DNA of 64,000 bases from Clostridia bacterium. GTDB taxonomy: Bacteria; Bacillota; Clostridia; Christensenellales; UBA1242. Shown one piece after another: positions 13,176 to 53,588 of this stretch (positions are counted from its first letter, which is position 1; every line of letters begins with the position of its first letter). The notes beneath the pieces were generated by a model, which was given only the letters and a program-made list of their open reading frames with translations, ran no database searches and was not told the origin of the DNA. The DNA lies in contig JAZSJH010000005.1 of assembly GCA_045534265.1 (NCBI GenBank), forward strand, positions 86,234 to 150,233, written 5' to 3'. The position numbers and the translations under genes are program-made.

Positions 13176-13335
13176 ATTTTGCCTCTCAAAAATATGTTTT
13201 TTTATACGCTTTGATTATATCACAAATAAAATAAATGTTAAGTAAATAAGAGCTAGTTTTTAGCTCTTTTTTTGTGGAAAAGATAATTTTATAAAAGTTT
13301 TTTTTGAGCAAAAAAAATATAGTATGCCAAAACAT

Positions 13336-13365
13336 TTGACAAAAAGGCAGGGGGGGGGGTAAACT
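13336..13365 (+). promoter_or_regulatory. promoter TTGACA-18-TAAACT with a G10 tract in the spacer
   Basis: TTGACA 13336-13341. G10 at 13350-13359 abuts TAAACT at 13360-13365. Conserved with 29570-29601. Confidence 0.55.
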
Positions 13366-13430
13366 AGGTGTAAGGATAGGTGTGTCTTGTATAAGTCATA
13401 CCAATATTGTGGACAAAGGAGAAAATATAT

Positions 13431-14678
13431 ATGGCACTAGTTCCAGCAAAATGTACCCAATGTGGCGCTTCTATTGAAGTTGATAAAACTCAAGAAGCGG
13501 GCATTTGCCCATCTTGCGGTACAGCATTTATTACCGAAAAAGTAATAAAAAATTATAACACCTTTAATGTAGACAATTCCGTTAATATTTATCTTGGCGG
13601 AAAGGGTGATAGCAAAAAAGAAGAAAGAAATGACGCAATAAGAGGTCTTATTGTTTCGCTAGATTATACTGATAAGGTAGATAGTTATAAGAGAATTAAA
13701 AAAATATTAGACAAATATCCAGGCTCAGCCGAAGCTCACTATTCTTGCGCTTTAGCGATAGCTGAGCTTATGACAAGAGATATGACCAAAGACACATACT
13801 TTGGGGAAATGCCGGATTATGAGATGTACCTTGACGAGGTAGACGGCAAAGATGTTTATATCAAAATATCTTATCCGATAGGGCTTATCGACAAAGCAAA
13901 GAAACTAGCAAAAAATGAAAAAGAAAAACTAGAAGTACTTCAAGCAGAGCAAGAATTTTACCAAATAATTACTTGCAAACTACATAAGTTATACCTTGGC
14001 ACATCAAAAGCTGATGAATCAAAAAGCCCAGAAACTGCACAAAATATTGTAAAAGAAGCAAACGAAAGAATGGACGAAAATCCTAGCAAAAAAATAAAAT
14101 TTGACCCGTTTTTCTGGTTTTTGAATCCTTGTGGTAAGTATAGTTTTGAATTTATTAATCTATTTAATGATATTGCAATAATTTTAATTCCTTTCTTTAT
14201 CGTAGCTATGTGTATACCTGTAGCAAGAGAGTGGCTACTTGCTAGATGGTTTTTGTTTGGCATAATAGCACTTGTTTGTCTTTTTGGACTTTATATGTTC
14301 TTTAGTTGCCTAAAAGATGAGATTAGTCATTTAATGCTTCACAATTCAAAAGCTTTGAGAAATGCAGATGCTGAGTATGCAAAAGATTATAATAGCATAA
14401 TCGAAAATGTCGAATTTAGAGAAGATAAGTATTGGTATGCTTTGGTGCTTGGGGTTGAAGGCTCTGTTAAACTTTATGAAGTTTTGAGACGACTTGAAGA
14501 AGATATCAAGAAAAAGAAACTAAATGTCACTGATGTAGATTGGAAATTTGTTTATGAACAATCATATTGCATTATGGAAAATAGAGGCTTAAGTTGGCAT
14601 GATGAGAAAATACTAGATATTATCGAAGAAAACATTAAAAAATATAACTTAGAAAAAATCTTGCCTAAAAAGAAATAA
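13431..14678 (+). CDS. zinc-ribbon membrane protein, paralog A
   Basis: AAGGAG RBS then ATG at 13431 (track start 13407 is a TTG). N-terminal CxxC...CxxC ribbon (CTQCG...CPSCG), helical region, TM helices, C-terminal domain. Paralogous to 29666..30931. Confidence 0.7.
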   Translation: MALVPAKCTQCGASIEVDKTQEAGICPSCGTAFITEKVIKNYNTFNVDNSVNIYLGGKGDSKKEERNDAIRGLIVSLDYTDKVDSYKRIKKILDKYPGSAEAHYSCALAIAELMTRDMTKDTYFGEMPDYEMYLDEVDGKDVYIKISYPIGLIDKAKKLAKNEKEKLEVLQAEQEFYQIITCKLHKLYLGTSKADESKSPETAQNIVKEANERMDENPSKKIKFDPFFWFLNPCGKYSFEFINLFNDIAIILIPFFIVAMCIPVAREWLLARWFLFGIIALVCLFGLYMFFSCLKDEISHLMLHNSKALRNADAEYAKDYNSIIENVEFREDKYWYALVLGVEGSVKLYEVLRRLEEDIKKKKLNVTDVDWKFVYEQSYCIMENRGLSWHDEKILDIIEENIKKYNLEKILPKKK

Positions 14679-14806: not shown

Positions 14807-15361
14807 TTATTTTTTTGACATAGCGACTTTCATTAATTTTTGGATTCCGTCATAAGTTACATCTTTTGATGTTAGATTGTATTTTGCAACAAAAGAGTAG
14901 ATGTCGTCAACGGATACACTATCATTTGCTTTTGAGTCGATTTCTACTTCCATAAGGTCGCCTAAGTTTTTGACAGAGTCAAAGTCAAAATGGAAGTTGT
15001 CAAGATGATATGAAACTCTTTCTTTGTCGATTACCATTTGAATTTCAAAACCTAGAGCAAAAAGTATCTTTTCCATTTGGTCTTTTGATTCAATCTCTGT
15101 TTCGTATTCATCACAATAAATAGGTGTAGCTTCTCTGTGAATTTTTTTGTAGCAAAGCACGGATTTGCCGTTTTGTTCTCTAATTCTTAAACACTCCATA
15201 GTTTCGCCGTCTTTTTCAAATTCAGCAAAGTTTGGTATATAGTAAGTGTCTATTTGGTGAGATTGTTTGCCTTTTGTAGCTAATTTTTCAAGGTCGGCGA
15301 TAATCTTGGCTTTGGTGTCGTTATTTATCAAAAATTTTAGTTCGATTTCTTTGTCTTGCAT
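14807..15361 (-). CDS. CYTH-domain protein (class IV adenylate cyclase / triphosphate tunnel metalloenzyme family)
   Basis: N-terminal EIELKF (ExExK) motif and typical ~180-aa size. Confidence 0.75.
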   Translation of the reverse strand: MQDKEIELKFLINNDTKAKIIADLEKLATKGKQSHQIDTYYIPNFAEFEKDGETMECLRIREQNGKSVLCYKKIHREATPIYCDEYETEIESKDQMEKILFALGFEIQMVIDKERVSYHLDNFHFDFDSVKNLGDLMEVEIDSKANDSVSVDDIYSFVAKYNLTSKDVTYDGIQKLMKVAMSKK

Positions 15362-15449: not shown

Positions 15450-15480
15450 AAAAAAAAGACAGGGATTAGATTTCCTTGTC
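15450..15480 (-). terminator. weak hairpin plus U8 overlapping the RT stop codon
   Basis: Minus-strand GACAAGG...CCCTGTC (one mismatch) followed by 8 U (plus-strand A-run 15450-15457). Confidence 0.4.
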
Positions 15481-16686
15481 CTTTTCGTATTCTTTGAACT
15501 TGTAATATTCATTTACTAGTGATTTGTAGCCAAGCTCTTTTAGTGTGTTGTATCTTACGTTATAGTTTTGTTTGCAGTGTCTGCCAGTGGACAAGAATCT
15601 TAGATATTGAATTAAGTAGTTATCAATAATTTTTAGTCCATTGCTTGTTGTTATCATAGGGAAAAACCACCTAGACCAAGTAAGTTCGTTGGCGTGGCTA
15701 TCTTCAAAGAATTTGCGGTTGAAAACCCTTAACATTACTTTGATAACCTTTTCGGTTGTTGCGGATTTTTTGATTTTCCAGCGGTATAGGGCGTGGGCTT
15801 TTCTTTTGATTTTGGCTTTTAGTTTCATTATTGTCACTTGTGACAAATCAATAGTTTTGTCGCAGTATTCAATACCAAGAAAATTCCAAGGGGTATGTGG
15901 CTCAAAGATACTTTCTTTGTCGGGGTTAACCACTAAATCTTTGTCTTTGATTACTTTGTTTATATATCTTCTATATTCTTCTAACTTTTCTTTGGTTTCG
16001 GCAAAGACAATCACGTCATCAGAATATCTTGCATATGGGATATTTTGGCTGTAAAAGTATAGGTCCAAATCTCTAAGGTATACATTAGCAAAAAAAGTCG
16101 ATAGAGAAGTGCCCGCCATAGCGCCACGTTTTTCTTTGATTATTTCGTCGTCAAATATAGCCTTATCTACGTGCAAAAACTTGTCAAAAAACCCTACAAG
16201 TTTTGGGTCGTCGTGCAAAAAGTCTTTTAAGATAGGCATAAGTTTGTCGATATTGATACTATTAAAGTAGTTTGAAATATCAAGCTTATAGCAATACATA
16301 TTTTCGATATTTTTTCGGTTAACTATTGTTTCAACGGCTCTTTTTACGCCAAATGATTTTCGGAAAGAAAAGCAATTGGCGCTCATTTTGTAGTCGTACT
16401 TGTATAGGCAGTATGAAATGATTTTGAGTACCATACTTTCGGCTTCTGGGAATTTGTATATGGTACGCTTTTTTGTGCTGCCGCTTTTGTTGATTAGTTT
16501 TTTGGTTGGCAAACTAAACTCAAAGTCATTACTTTTAAGTTTTGCTACTGTATCTTTGTACTTTTTACCTTCGATAAAATCTGTCAAAAATGCTTCATCT
16601 TTTTTTGTAAGATGGGCTTTTTCTTTTTTGTAGTTTAGGTATTCTTGCCAAATATTATCATCAGTTATTTTATCTAAAATACTCAT
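15466..16686 (-). CDS. reverse transcriptase, stand-alone (407 aa), unclassified retron/UG/DGR-like type
   Basis: RT motifs KLDISNYFNSI, GTSLSTFFANVYL, YARYSDDVIVF (YxDD box), NPDK, NFLG. The ATG at 16686 follows GGAGAA. The track extension to 16884 has no RBS and a non-protein-like sequence. Confidence 0.85.
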   Translation of the reverse strand: MSILDKITDDNIWQEYLNYKKEKAHLTKKDEAFLTDFIEGKKYKDTVAKLKSNDFEFSLPTKKLINKSGSTKKRTIYKFPEAESMVLKIISYCLYKYDYKMSANCFSFRKSFGVKRAVETIVNRKNIENMYCYKLDISNYFNSINIDKLMPILKDFLHDDPKLVGFFDKFLHVDKAIFDDEIIKEKRGAMAGTSLSTFFANVYLRDLDLYFYSQNIPYARYSDDVIVFAETKEKLEEYRRYINKVIKDKDLVVNPDKESIFEPHTPWNFLGIEYCDKTIDLSQVTIMKLKAKIKRKAHALYRWKIKKSATTEKVIKVMLRVFNRKFFEDSHANELTWSRWFFPMITTSNGLKIIDNYLIQYLRFLSTGRHCKQNYNVRYNTLKELGYKSLVNEYYKFKEYEKDKEI

Positions 16687-16703
16687 ATTTTCTCCATAAA
16701 AAA

Positions 16704-16713
16704 AGAAAGGAAA
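16704..16713 (-). repeat. 3' arm (TTTCCTTTCT on the transcript) of the long-range inverted repeat
   Basis: Perfect complement of 16827-16836. Abuts the RT Shine-Dalgarno. Confidence 0.7.
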
Positions 16714-16826
16714 ATGCTTTGAAATCACATTTATGTGATACAAGACTGAACATACAACTGTTACCTGCAAAACATATAATATGTTGTATGCTTCGCCCTT
16801 CGCAGGTGCAAAATTTACTTTTTGCC

Positions 16827-16836
16827 TTTCCTTTCT
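16827..16836 (-). repeat. 5' arm (AGAAAGGAAA on the transcript) of the long-range inverted repeat
   Basis: Perfect complement of 16704-16713. Begins about 1-2 nt after the predicted TSS. Confidence 0.7.
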
Positions 16837-16843
16837 AAATATT

Positions 16844-16872
16844 ATTTTAGCACTTTTTAGCATAAATGTCAA
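16844..16872 (-). promoter_or_regulatory. promoter TTGACA-17-TAAAAT for the leader and RT
   Basis: On the minus strand, TTGACA at 16872-16867, a 17-nt spacer, TAAAAT at 16849-16844. Confidence 0.55.
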
Positions 16873-16943
16873 ACTTATACACAAAAAACCGATTTTGGGT
16901 GGTTTTAGGGGTAAATATGTTATTGTGTTGTCAAATACAATAA

Positions 16944-29569: not shown

Positions 29570-29601
29570 TTGACAAAAATGCACGGGGGGGGGGGTAAAC
29601 T
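29570..29601 (+). promoter_or_regulatory. promoter TTGACA-20-TAAACT with a G11 tract in the spacer
   Basis: TTGACA 29570-29575. G11 at 29585-29595 abuts TAAACT at 29596-29601. Homologous to 13336-13365. Confidence 0.5.
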
Positions 29602-29665: not shown

Positions 29666-30931
29666 ATGGGATTAGTTCCTGCAAAATGTACAATGTGTGG
29701 TGCGTCTATAGAAGTAGACCCTAGTCAAGAAGCTGGCATATGTAAGCATTGTGGTACGGCATTTATTACCGAAAAAGTAATTAATAATTATAATACAATC
29801 AATGTAGATAAATCTGTGAATATTTATCTAGGCGGTAAGGGTGATAGCAAAAAAGAAGAAAGAGATGATGAAATAAAAGCCCTTATGGTGTCACTAGATT
29901 ATACAGACGAAGTAGACACATACAAAAGAGCTCAAGATTTGGTAAAACAATATCCAGGCTCTGCAGATGCTCATGTAGCAGCGGCTTTTGCTATTGGTGA
30001 GCTTATGACAAGAAATTTAGAAGGGGTATATATTGACGACATAGTCGACTACGAAATGTATTTTAATGAAGTTGATGGAAAAGATGTGTTTATAAACATA
30101 TCTTATCCATTGGGACTACTTGACAAAGCCAAAAAGTTTGTAAAAAATGAAAACGAAAAACAAAAAGTTATCAACGCAGAAAAAGACTTCCATCAAAAGA
30201 TTGTTTGTAGATTGTATGAGTATTACATTAGGTCTAATAGACTTGGACCAAATAGAGATAAAATCTTAAAAGAAGCCCCTATGTCTGTAGAAAAAATACT
30301 ATCAAGGATAAATCCGCCTGAAGATAAACCTAAACCAACACAAACAATTACTGAACCAAAGAAAAAAGCAAAATTTAACTTTTTCAATTGTTTTATTGGG
30401 GCATCAAATACAATAGATTGGACTATGATAGCTTCTGTGTTACTTGTTATTGGTTTTATTGTTTGTATGTGTTTGCCTGTGGTTAGAGAATGGTTGCTTG
30501 TTAGATGGTTTTTGTTTAGTGTAATTGTTGTATTTGTTCTTTTGTCTTTGTGGACTATTATTTATGCGATAAAAACCGAATTAGACATTATTTATGTAAA
30601 GAATAATTGTGAAGAAAAAGATCCAAACAAGTACGACCCTGACGATTATACAAGAGAAAAATTGATGACATTTGATGTAATACTTACAAAAGATAATTAC
30701 ATCTATGCTATGATTCCTTATGTTGATGATACCGTTATGATTTATCATATTATAAGAAGAATTGCAGAAGACTTAAAAACAAAAGCACTAAAGACAGAAG
30801 ATGTAGATTGGAATTTTGTTTATTCTCAAGCACGTTTGGCTTTAGAATTTGCCACTGACAAAAAGAAATATTCAAACGAAGAGATTTTTGCATACATCAA
30901 AAAACAAAAAAACAAATACAAACTAAAATAA
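29666..30931 (+). CDS. zinc-ribbon membrane protein, paralog B
   Basis: AAGGAG RBS then ATG at 29666. Same architecture as 13431..14678 and high N-terminal identity to it (CTMCG...CKHCG ribbon). Confidence 0.7.
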   Translation: MGLVPAKCTMCGASIEVDPSQEAGICKHCGTAFITEKVINNYNTINVDKSVNIYLGGKGDSKKEERDDEIKALMVSLDYTDEVDTYKRAQDLVKQYPGSADAHVAAAFAIGELMTRNLEGVYIDDIVDYEMYFNEVDGKDVFINISYPLGLLDKAKKFVKNENEKQKVINAEKDFHQKIVCRLYEYYIRSNRLGPNRDKILKEAPMSVEKILSRINPPEDKPKPTQTITEPKKKAKFNFFNCFIGASNTIDWTMIASVLLVIGFIVCMCLPVVREWLLVRWFLFSVIVVFVLLSLWTIIYAIKTELDIIYVKNNCEEKDPNKYDPDDYTREKLMTFDVILTKDNYIYAMIPYVDDTVMIYHIIRRIAEDLKTKALKTEDVDWNFVYSQARLALEFATDKKKYSNEEIFAYIKKQKNKYKLK

Positions 30932-51965: not shown

Positions 51966-53108
51966 ATGAAAAACATCTTGATTGTTATGGGCGGCGTTAG
52001 TACCGAACACGACATTTCGCTGATCACCGGCGTACAAACGATAAACAATATTGATAAAACAAAATATGCCATTTACCCTGTTGTAATTGATAAGCAGGGG
52101 AAGTGGCATTTTTCTTTTGACTTTGTGTCAGTAGATAATATTGTTAGATATTTTTCAAATCAAAAAAAACAAAACGAAGCAGTGTTGATGCAGGATAAAA
52201 TTTTGTATATAAAAAAGAAAAACAAGCTCAAAAAAGCAGGTAGTATTGATTGTGTAATTTTGTGCTGCCACGGGGGAACGGGCGAAAATGGGGCTTTGAC
52301 GGGCTTATTTGAGTGCATAGGGCTTCCGGTTGTGTCTCCAAACCACACTTTGAGTGGAATTTTTATGGATAAATCACTTTCAAAAATCATCTTTGAAAAG
52401 TTAAATATTGACAGCCCAAAATATATGTTGGTCGATAGAGAAAACTATCTTAAAAATGAAAAGGATATTAAAAAAGAAATTTTCGAAGAAATAAGTTTTC
52501 CTTGTGTAGTTAAGCCTTGCCTTGGTGGTAGCAGTATAGGTATAACTATTGCAAAAACAAAAAAAGATTTTGATAGTTCTTTAGATAATGCTTTTATTTA
52601 TGACAATAGAGTGATAGTCGAAAAAGCGGTTGATAATTTGTATGAACTTAATATCGCTGTTATGAAGTGTGATGGGAAACTTATGCTTTCGCAGATAGAA
52701 AAACCTTGCAATAAAAACAAACTACTTTCTTTTGATGATAAGTACATATCAAGCGGAAAGTCAGGTCTTAACAATATGGGGCGGCAACTTCCTGCTGTTA
52801 TATCTCCAGAACAAAAAAGCTATATAGAAGATGCTTCTGCAAAATTATATAGTGAGTATATAAAAAGCGGTGTGTGCCGTATAGACTATCTTGTAGATAG
52901 CAAAACGCAAAAAGTATATATAGGAGAAGTAAACACAATACCGGGGTCAATGTCTTTTTATTTATGGCAAAAGCTTTTTGGTGAGATTTTAGATGGGTTA
53001 ATCAATCAAGCTATTGTTGACTTTGAGAGTGAAAACAAACTCCAAAAAAGTTTTTCTTCTTGTGTTTTAGATAAATTTAGTCGTGGCTCAAAAATGTCCA
53101 AACTATAA
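51966..53108 (+). CDS. ddl: D-alanine--D-alanine ligase
   Basis: MKNILIVMGGVSTEHDISL N-terminus and ATP-grasp core. ATG at 51966. Confidence 0.9.
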   Translation: MKNILIVMGGVSTEHDISLITGVQTINNIDKTKYAIYPVVIDKQGKWHFSFDFVSVDNIVRYFSNQKKQNEAVLMQDKILYIKKKNKLKKAGSIDCVILCCHGGTGENGALTGLFECIGLPVVSPNHTLSGIFMDKSLSKIIFEKLNIDSPKYMLVDRENYLKNEKDIKKEIFEEISFPCVVKPCLGGSSIGITIAKTKKDFDSSLDNAFIYDNRVIVEKAVDNLYELNIAVMKCDGKLMLSQIEKPCNKNKLLSFDDKYISSGKSGLNNMGRQLPAVISPEQKSYIEDASAKLYSEYIKSGVCRIDYLVDSKTQKVYIGEVNTIPGSMSFYLWQKLFGEILDGLINQAIVDFESENKLQKSFSSCVLDKFSRGSKMSKL

Positions 53109-53408
53109 ATTTAATTTTTTACAAAGGTTATCTGTAAGGGTAGACTTGTTATTTACAAGAAGCCCCTTTAGATAACTTTTTTCGTCTATTGTAAGAAATG
53201 TAGTGTCTAGTTTGTATTCTTTATCTATACCAATTCCACCATTTTTGCCAAGATAGGTCTTGGTAGGAACGCCAGCGCATTCTAAATAGTCTAGATACCT
53301 GTATATTGTGCGGGGGCTAACTTCGTACTTTTCGGCAAGATATTTCGCAGGCACCCTGTCTTGTCGCAAAAGTTCTAAAAGTATTGAGATTATAAGATAT
53401 ATTTTCAT
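53103..53408 (-). CDS. small HTH-domain transcriptional regulator
   Basis: N-terminal HTH (AKYLAEKYEVSPRTIYRYLDYLE). 101 aa. Confidence 0.65.
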   Translation of the reverse strand: MKIYLIISILLELLRQDRVPAKYLAEKYEVSPRTIYRYLDYLECAGVPTKTYLGKNGGIGIDKEYKLDTTFLTIDEKSYLKGLLVNNKSTLTDNLCKKLNL

Positions 53409-53588
53409 ACTAAGCCCCCCCTTTCACTTATATTATATCTTAGTTTGTGTACTTTTTTTGTCACATAAAAGGGGCTATTTGTATTGTTTATAATTTAACT
53501 ATATATAGATATAATTTACAAAAATTAGTTATTGAAAAAGGGATTTTTATATGTTATACTAAAAGTAGTTTAATAGGCAGGTGATTTT

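Follow-up and report, generated by a model that had tools for sequence, protein, structure and literature searches.

Promoters switched by replication slippage are textbook features of a few pathogens, belonging to Neisseria, Treponema, Mycoplasma and Haemophilus. In Mycoplasma hyorhinis, each vlp lipoprotein gene lies behind its own promoter spacer containing a poly-A tract, and the result is a set of combinatorial ON/OFF surface states. For porA of Neisseria meningitidis and tp0126 of Treponema pallidum, the dependence of transcription on the length of a poly-G tract between the -35 and -10 elements was shown experimentally (PMC7864442), so a preliminary description of the locus studied here was right to treat spacer homopolymers as an established promoter switch. 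The porA tract sets the transcription of an envelope protein and is one locus of a multi-locus phasome (PMC7864442, PMC5084427). The tp0126 gene, which encodes an OmpW homolog, is transcribed best when its poly-G-containing spacer is 17 nt long, and the T. pallidum genome contains many other poly-G tracts that vary within isolates (PMC7864442). In the gut commensal Bifidobacterium breve, a pilus gene is turned ON and OFF by replication slippage at a G tract (PMC9187656). Our literature search returned no account of slippage promoter switches in Christensenellales-like or other uncultured gut Clostridia. Switches of the kind considered below are familiar; the novelty relative to the searched literature lies in the organism group and in the target genes.

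We analyzed a 64,000-nt window (the whole stretch C8:86234-150233, contig JAZSJH010000005.1) of GCA_045534265.1, a 1.2-Mb genome in nine contigs that is referred to as G000. One gene in this window, copy 1, is preceded by a promoter with a G homopolymer in its spacer. The features of the locus, in window coordinates, are as follows.

13336-13341, plus strand: -35 hexamer TTGACA of copy 1, read directly, found by a promoter scan and kept in every ortholog
13342-13359, plus strand: 18-nt spacer, AAAAGGCA followed by G10, read directly and also 18 nt long in broken-tract orthologs
13350-13359, plus strand: G10 homopolymer abutting the -10 hexamer, read directly, the proposed slippage site
13360-13365, plus strand: -10 hexamer TAAACT, read directly, found by the promoter scan and invariant among orthologs
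13379-13402, plus strand: 5'-UTR hairpin GGUGUG...CAUACC, predicted in copies 1 and 2
13416-13421, plus strand: Shine-Dalgarno sequence AAGGAG, 9 nt 5' of the ATG at 13431
13431-14678, plus strand: copy-1 gene, 415 aa, proposed as the switched gene

The copy-1 promoter resembles that of porA in having a G homopolymer (about 9 to 11 nt in porA) within the spacer of a sigma-70-type promoter, where it sets the -35/-10 distance. Unlike porA, it belongs to an uncultured, low-GC, Gram-positive-type gut commensal (Christensenellales-like) and not to a proteobacterial pathogen, its apparent working spacing is 18 nt rather than 17 nt, and instead of a porin its gene encodes a zinc-ribbon protein that has a membrane hairpin of two helices. 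With tp0126 it shares the poly-G tract between -35 and -10 and a genome with many such tracts, but T. pallidum differs in phylum and life style, and its targets are outer-membrane proteins. The tprE/G/J/L genes are arranged differently: their tract immediately precedes the transcription start, and they are co-regulated by a CRP-like factor, a counterpart of which is not known for the copy-1 promoter. The vlp system offers another small-genome, low-GC organism in which several lipoprotein genes each have a homopolymer-bearing spacer; there, however, the homopolymer is poly-A instead of poly-G, the host belongs to the Mollicutes instead of the Clostridia, and the genes form one clustered family, whereas the loci described here are dispersed and include unrelated genes. 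The B. breve tract is intragenic and acts by frameshifting, which makes it similar to an in-frame G10 found elsewhere in G000 (C8:206785) and dissimilar to the copy-1 promoter tract.

The hexamers TTGACA and TAAACT, the 18-nt gap and the G10 tract were all recovered on re-reading at exactly the positions first reported. An uninterrupted homopolymer of at least 8 nt thus lies between recognizable -35 and -10 hexamers (TTGACA-N8-G10-TAAACT). A consensus promoter scanner that accepts spacers of 16 to 18 nt listed the copy-1 promoter with 10 of 12 matches. The promoter of a paralogous gene, copy 2, was left unlisted because its 20-nt spacer exceeds this range. Transcription of copy 1 is predicted to start near position 13372.

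Some of the differences between copies 1 and 2 in the predicted 5'-UTR hairpin fall on both sides of the stem. The hairpin is missing from the closest lineages (P0002 and P0005), which have a different UTR, and thus is not essential. A search of the 5' UTR against Rfam (loci L001, L011 and L014) gave no match at the gathering threshold to a riboswitch or another known structured RNA. Farther upstream, a terminator-like hairpin on the plus strand (13248-13268; AAGAGCTAG-TTT-TAGCTCTT followed by a T run) sits between a divergent dTDP-glucose-dehydratase-like gene and the copy-1 promoter and is also kept in a sister species (G004). It may guard the promoter from read-through, though no plus-strand gene lies upstream.

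The G+C content of the window is 33.7%, and about 0.004 G/C runs of at least 10 nt would be expected in it from composition. Our recount agreed with the preliminary description that only three G/C runs in the window reach 7 nt: the G10 at 13350-13359, a paralogous run at 29585-29595, which is a G11, and a C7 at 53415-53421. The last of these is a G7 on the minus strand, located 6 nt 5' of the ATG of a 101-aa ORF (53103-53408), and is a Shine-Dalgarno-like G run, not a promoter tract. A G7 at C2:42236 resembles it.

Over the entire 1.2-Mb genome, the spectrum of G/C run lengths was bimodal. There were 205 runs of 5 nt, 14 of 6 nt and 4 of 7 nt, then a gap at 8 and 9 nt (0 runs each), and then seven runs of 10 to 12 nt (three of 10, three of 11 and one of 12). 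The expected number of runs of at least 10 nt was 0.05. The seven long runs are given below with their promoter layout, spacer length and gene.

C4:47538: TTGACA-N7-G11-TAGACT, spacer 18 nt, 353-aa DUF6273 lipoprotein
C4:109866: TTGACA-N9-G10-TATACT, spacer 19 nt, third zinc-ribbon/2-TM paralog
C5:238995, minus strand: TTGACC-TTA-C12-TATGAT or TATACT, spacer 15 or 20 nt, 1393-aa lipoprotein, tract 56 nt 5' of the ATG
C8:27336: TTGACA-N6-G11-TAAACT, spacer 17 nt, 597-aa collagen-repeat/GDSL lipoprotein
C8:99583: copy 1, spacer 18 nt, zinc-ribbon/2-TM protein
C8:115818: copy 2, spacer 20 nt, zinc-ribbon/2-TM protein
C8:206785-206794: in-frame G10 (…SVGGGLL…) in the coding sequence of a 282-aa TMEM164-family multi-pass membrane protein, no spacer

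Promoter-like spacers, defined by the pattern TTGAC[AC]-N15-21-TAnnnT, make up 0.64% of G000, yet they contain six of the seven complete long tracts (binomial p ~5e-13). Long tracts are therefore both over-represented in this genome and placed preferentially in promoter spacers. The genes behind the six promoter tracts encode three lipoproteins and three zinc-ribbon/2-TM paralogs. Since the lipoprotein promoters share only the consensus boxes with the copy-1 promoter, the placement of their tracts is convergent and not a product of duplication.

Such placement bears on the idea that the tracts are a neutral by-product, generated as G runs in A+T-rich intergenic DNA by lineage-specific mutation or gene conversion and carried along with duplicated promoter cassettes, with no regulatory role. 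In favour of this idea, copies 1 and 2 are alike in their promoter, their UTR and the beginning of their coding sequence, with the copy-2 promoter seemingly converted from copy 1, and a repeat of about 14 copies in one related genome (G018) starts with TTGACAAAAATGC-G8-13. However, the three unrelated lipoprotein genes have the tract at the same place relative to their own hexamers within unrelated flanks, random intergenic placement would not reach promoter spacers in six of seven cases, and a neutral G10 should decay, yet it is intact in three lineages. We consider a neutral origin highly unlikely.

The in-frame G10 at C8:206785 is the sole complete long tract of G000 outside a promoter spacer and is a candidate site of translational (frameshift) phase variation. 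All seven long tracts are G, rather than C, on the assembled strand, including the C5 tract, whose gene is on the opposite strand; four of them are spread across 180 kb of C8. This uniformity may reflect a strand or replication bias. Contig C3 terminates in TTGACAAAAAGCAGGGGGGG (C3:100418-100437), and an eighth poly-G promoter thus falls at an assembly break.

We evaluated the same layout in 61 related genomes. The pattern TTGACA-N4-11-G8+ was found at 53 distinct loci in 14 of these genomes, nearly all from one family, while the reversed-pattern control gave 0 loci in all 61. Spacers at the loci fetched from relatives ranged from 15 to 22 nt, and most of the genes behind them encoded membrane proteins, lipoproteins or products that are secreted. 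Other Christensenellales-like MAGs have homologs of the zinc-ribbon protein whose own spacers contain G9 tracts in different positions. Within the genus, G000 contained seven tracts of at least 9 nt and each of five congeners 0 or 1, a difference that fragmented assemblies may exaggerate through undercounting. Several relatives also had such tracts no more than 30 nt from the end of a contig (G022:C14, G013:C54 and G009:C6).

Fourteen of the pattern loci, all in G018, are part of a hairpin-bearing dispersed repeat. The first part of this repeat (about 14 copies; L022, L042 and L033) reads TTGACAAAAATGC-G8-13-TAAAAT; a 17-bp hairpin (GGGTAAAATGACCTTGC…GCAAGGTCATTTTACCC) comes next, along with conserved sequence of about 200 nt. 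Neither a tRNA nor an Rfam match was found in it. Being a dispersed repeat, it was set aside as a different phenomenon and was not counted in the phasome argument.

Orthologs of copy 1 were drawn from the sister species of the same genus (G004) and from metagenome assemblies. Their spacers are given below, with protein identity to copy 1 in parentheses.

P0004 (80%), four samples: AAAGGCAA followed by G10, 18 nt
P0004, one sample (L125): AAAGGCAA followed by G6TG2, 17 nt
P0005 (78%): AAGGTGTT followed by G10, 18 nt
P0002 (87%): AAGGTGTC followed by G6TG3, 18 nt
P0003 (81%): AAAGGCAAT followed by G5TG3, 18 nt
G004: AAAGGCAAT followed by GTG3TG3, 18 nt

Both TTGACA and TAAACT were retained in all copy-1 orthologs, which represent five other lineages, and the 18-nt spacing was retained with the single exception of L125. 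Because orthologs keep the -35 hexamer, the -10 hexamer and the 18-nt distance whether the tract is intact or broken, the promoter is real. This conservation agrees with the initial assignment of the two hexamers to a promoter, as does the similarity between paralogs, which begins just 5' of the -35 element. Furthermore, 18 nt is the length retained once the run is no longer slippery, and thus it is probably the working (ON) spacing of the copy-1 promoter.

The tract sequences in the broken alleles were G6TG3, TG5TG3 and TGTG3TG3, with G6TG2 in one sample. Intact and broken tracts were both found in each UTR type; therefore, the tract is old and was broken at least twice. The broken tracts (L002, L125, L129/L130 and L131) have a T at tract position 7 (...TGGG-TAAACT) across different UTR types, which is either a recurrent change or a single one spread through recombination. 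A canonical extended -10 element (TGn) was rejected as the cause of the recurrent T, since the TG in TGGG-TAAACT is one base too far from the hexamer.

The paralogous promoter in the window, that of copy 2, has the following features.

29570-29575, plus strand: -35 hexamer TTGACA
29585-29595, plus strand: G11 homopolymer, which together with the preceding AAAATGCAC makes up the 20-nt spacer
29596-29601, plus strand: -10 hexamer TAAACT
29666-30931, plus strand: copy-2 gene, 421 aa, 48% identical to copy 1

When the two loci were aligned, no likeness was found upstream. The similarity started about 6 nt 5' of the -35 hexamer, stayed at 82-87% identity through the spacer, the -10 hexamer, the 5' UTR and approximately the first 200 nt of the coding sequence, and then decayed. 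Copy-2 orthologs from three other lineages have a different promoter, TTGACA-17 nt-TACTAT, TATTAT or TAAAAT, without a G run. Thus, the copy-2 promoter and UTR in G000 appear to have been replaced by the copy-1 cassette, in what looks like a transfer, or conversion, of the switch. The resulting 20-nt spacer is three nt longer than that of the orthologs, and the copy-2 promoter is predicted to be weak or OFF. For the third paralog (C4:109866), the spacer is 19 nt in G000 and 18 nt in orthologs that have no tract. Altogether, spacers are 17 or 18 nt in the tract-less orthologs of copy 2 and the third paralog, as opposed to 15-22 nt in the G-tract promoters.

Variation in tract length was found between closely related assemblies at two loci. 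Five samples of P0004 could be aligned over 1.4 kb, and the differences among them were confined to the tract: four had G10 and one, L125, had the 9-nt G6TG2, which amounts to one G fewer and one G>T change. L125 comes from a short metagenome contig. At the ortholog of the third paralog, G11 in L136 versus G10 in L137 was the sole difference over 2 kb between two different samples, so that the spacers were 20 and 19 nt and the encoded protein was identical. In a third assembly of this locus, the Logan contig starts 2 nt past the tract. No conspecific assemblies of G000 are on record, and neither copy 1 nor copy 2 had an exact protein match.

An error of assembly or sequencing in the tract or in its length, such as a two-colour poly-G artefact or a homopolymer miscall, could in principle produce such patterns. 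Homopolymer lengths are error-prone, contig C3 ends in a G run, and the variant allele L125 is from the short contig mentioned above. On the other hand, the copy-1 tract is internal, with unique flanks on either side; G10 recurs in independent ENA and JGI assemblies from three lineages; many loci show the tract within a conserved promoter; and even the end of C3 is preceded by the same TTGACAAAAAGCA context. The probability of an artefact appears to us close to negligible.

The ortholog of the third paralog exists as G10 and G11, whereas at the copy-1 locus all three tract-bearing lineages have G10, with one variant. Specifically, the length at copy 1 departs from G10 in one of six tract-bearing assemblies, and that allele also has the G>T change. 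Three lineages, diverged to 78-87% protein identity, thus share the consensus of G10 and 18 nt. G000 has intact MutS and MutL; hence slippage is not boosted through loss of mismatch repair, and we rejected such loss as a source of instability. Neisseria, which has switches of this type, also has mismatch repair. A switch whose ON length has an advantage in the gut would agree with both the conserved G10 and the intact repair; the two observations also leave room for a fixed promoter element.

According to this alternative, promoter strength, DNA shape or factor binding is tuned by a G-rich block next to the -10 hexamer, selection keeps the block at a constant length, and slippage amounts to rare noise. 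The conservation of G10 and 18 nt in three diverged lineages and the intact mismatch repair would fit such an element. Furthermore, the interrupted alleles remain G-rich and 18 nt long, and their T occupies one and the same position (TGGG-TAAACT) in separate lineages, as might be expected if the sequence itself had a role. However, paralogous and analogous promoters of the same genome have tracts of 10 to 12 nt in spacers of 15 to 20 nt and thus no single geometry, and across the family the spacers span 15 to 22 nt with the tract at varying positions. For copy 2 and the third paralog, there are orthologs that work with no G block at all. One-G differences are the sole polymorphism between otherwise identical assemblies, and the gap at 8 and 9 nt followed by a cluster at 10 to 12 nt fits selection for mutability, not for G content. 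A fixed element is, in our judgment, unlikely.

We consider it likely, instead, that G10 serves as a simple-sequence-repeat (contingency) switch, or a rheostat, in a sigma-A-type promoter of the porA/tp0126 kind. This reading builds on the anatomy of the promoter, the non-random placement of the tracts, the conservation of the boxes and the polymorphism restricted to the tract in relatives. The preliminary description had proposed a candidate slipped-strand switch, and comparisons between sequences lend support to the proposal, both through the placement in spacers (six of seven long tracts in G000; 53 loci versus 0 in the control) and through the tract-only differences in relatives.

The switch would operate as follows. 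Slipped-strand mispairing at replication would add or remove a G, altering the distance and the rotational phase between the -35 and -10 elements and hence the binding of RNA polymerase. Reasoning from the general behaviour of sigma-70 and sigma-A promoters toward spacer length, we infer that the copy-1 promoter is active at 18 nt (G10) and probably also at 17 nt, and would be weak or silent at 19-20 nt or more. The assembled consensus would accordingly have copy 1 ON with its 18-nt spacer, the third paralog weakly expressed at 19 nt and copy 2 OFF at 20 nt. Slippage presumably takes place in this very population. Together with the three lipoprotein promoters and the in-frame tract, the three paralogs would endow a small genome with envelope states that are mixed in a stochastic, heritable and reversible manner.

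In the copy-1 protein, a CxxC…CxxC zinc ribbon at the N terminus is followed by a helical middle part; two adjacent hydrophobic helices (about residues 239-296) then form a membrane hairpin, and the C-terminal domain is again helical. Its only match in Pfam was a weak, sub-threshold one to a zinc ribbon (Zn_ribbon_19), and its AlphaFold2 model was poor (pLDDT 60.6). Full-length relatives numbered 12 among 5.8 billion proteins, whereas the N-terminal 40-60 residues are widespread in Clostridia and Treponema. The protein diverges somewhat faster than its neighbours (78-87% versus 83-98% identity).

Given the two-helix hairpin and the lack of a signal peptide, both large parts of the protein are probably cytoplasmic. 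The copy-1 product would thus be mostly cytoplasmic, anchored to the membrane by its hairpin, and not a typical surface antigen; such a location is uncommon for the product of a contingency gene. Consequently, the view that the gene encodes a membrane protein of the class typically under such control holds as far as membrane anchoring is concerned, but the probable cytoplasmic location sets the protein apart from the surface antigens of that class.

PADLOC returned no match for copy 1. The same program identified a stand-alone reverse transcriptase on the minus strand at 15466-16884 (RT_UG26, E 7e-161), and a gene with a CYTH domain (14807-15361) is located between it and copy 1.

The observations can be joined into a broader reading, which we offer tentatively and regard as doubtful as a whole. 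A family of small-genome, uncultured, Christensenellales-like gut Clostridia might possess a poly-G "phasome" that acts almost entirely on promoter spacers and substitutes for conventional envelope regulation. The three zinc-ribbon/2-TM paralogs, with spacers of 18, 19 and 20 nt, would mostly be expressed one at a time, and the cassette of promoter, UTR and N-terminal domain would spread between paralogs via gene conversion. These proteins evolve fast and are probably cytoplasmic for the most part, and a defence-type reverse transcriptase (UG26) is encoded close to copy 1; for these reasons, the proteins may serve as phase-variable sensors acting at the membrane, for instance against phages, and not as surface antigens.

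The practical gain from this single locus is modest, since the mechanism is already known. What is new is a near-complete census of one genome, with six of seven tracts in promoter spacers; the finding that one promoter exists in intact and locked forms in different species; what appears to be the transfer of a switch cassette to a paralog; and a family-wide count of loci against a reversed control. G000 is also an unusually clean case, in that nearly all long G/C runs of a 1.2-Mb genome lie in promoter spacers before envelope genes. If the switch is confirmed, poly-G tracts in MAGs, often located where contigs break, should be treated as regulatory elements rather than as a nuisance of assembly, and consensus assemblies would be hiding biologically relevant subpopulations. 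Stochastic variation of the surface and the membrane would then be routine for abundant gut commensals with reduced genomes.
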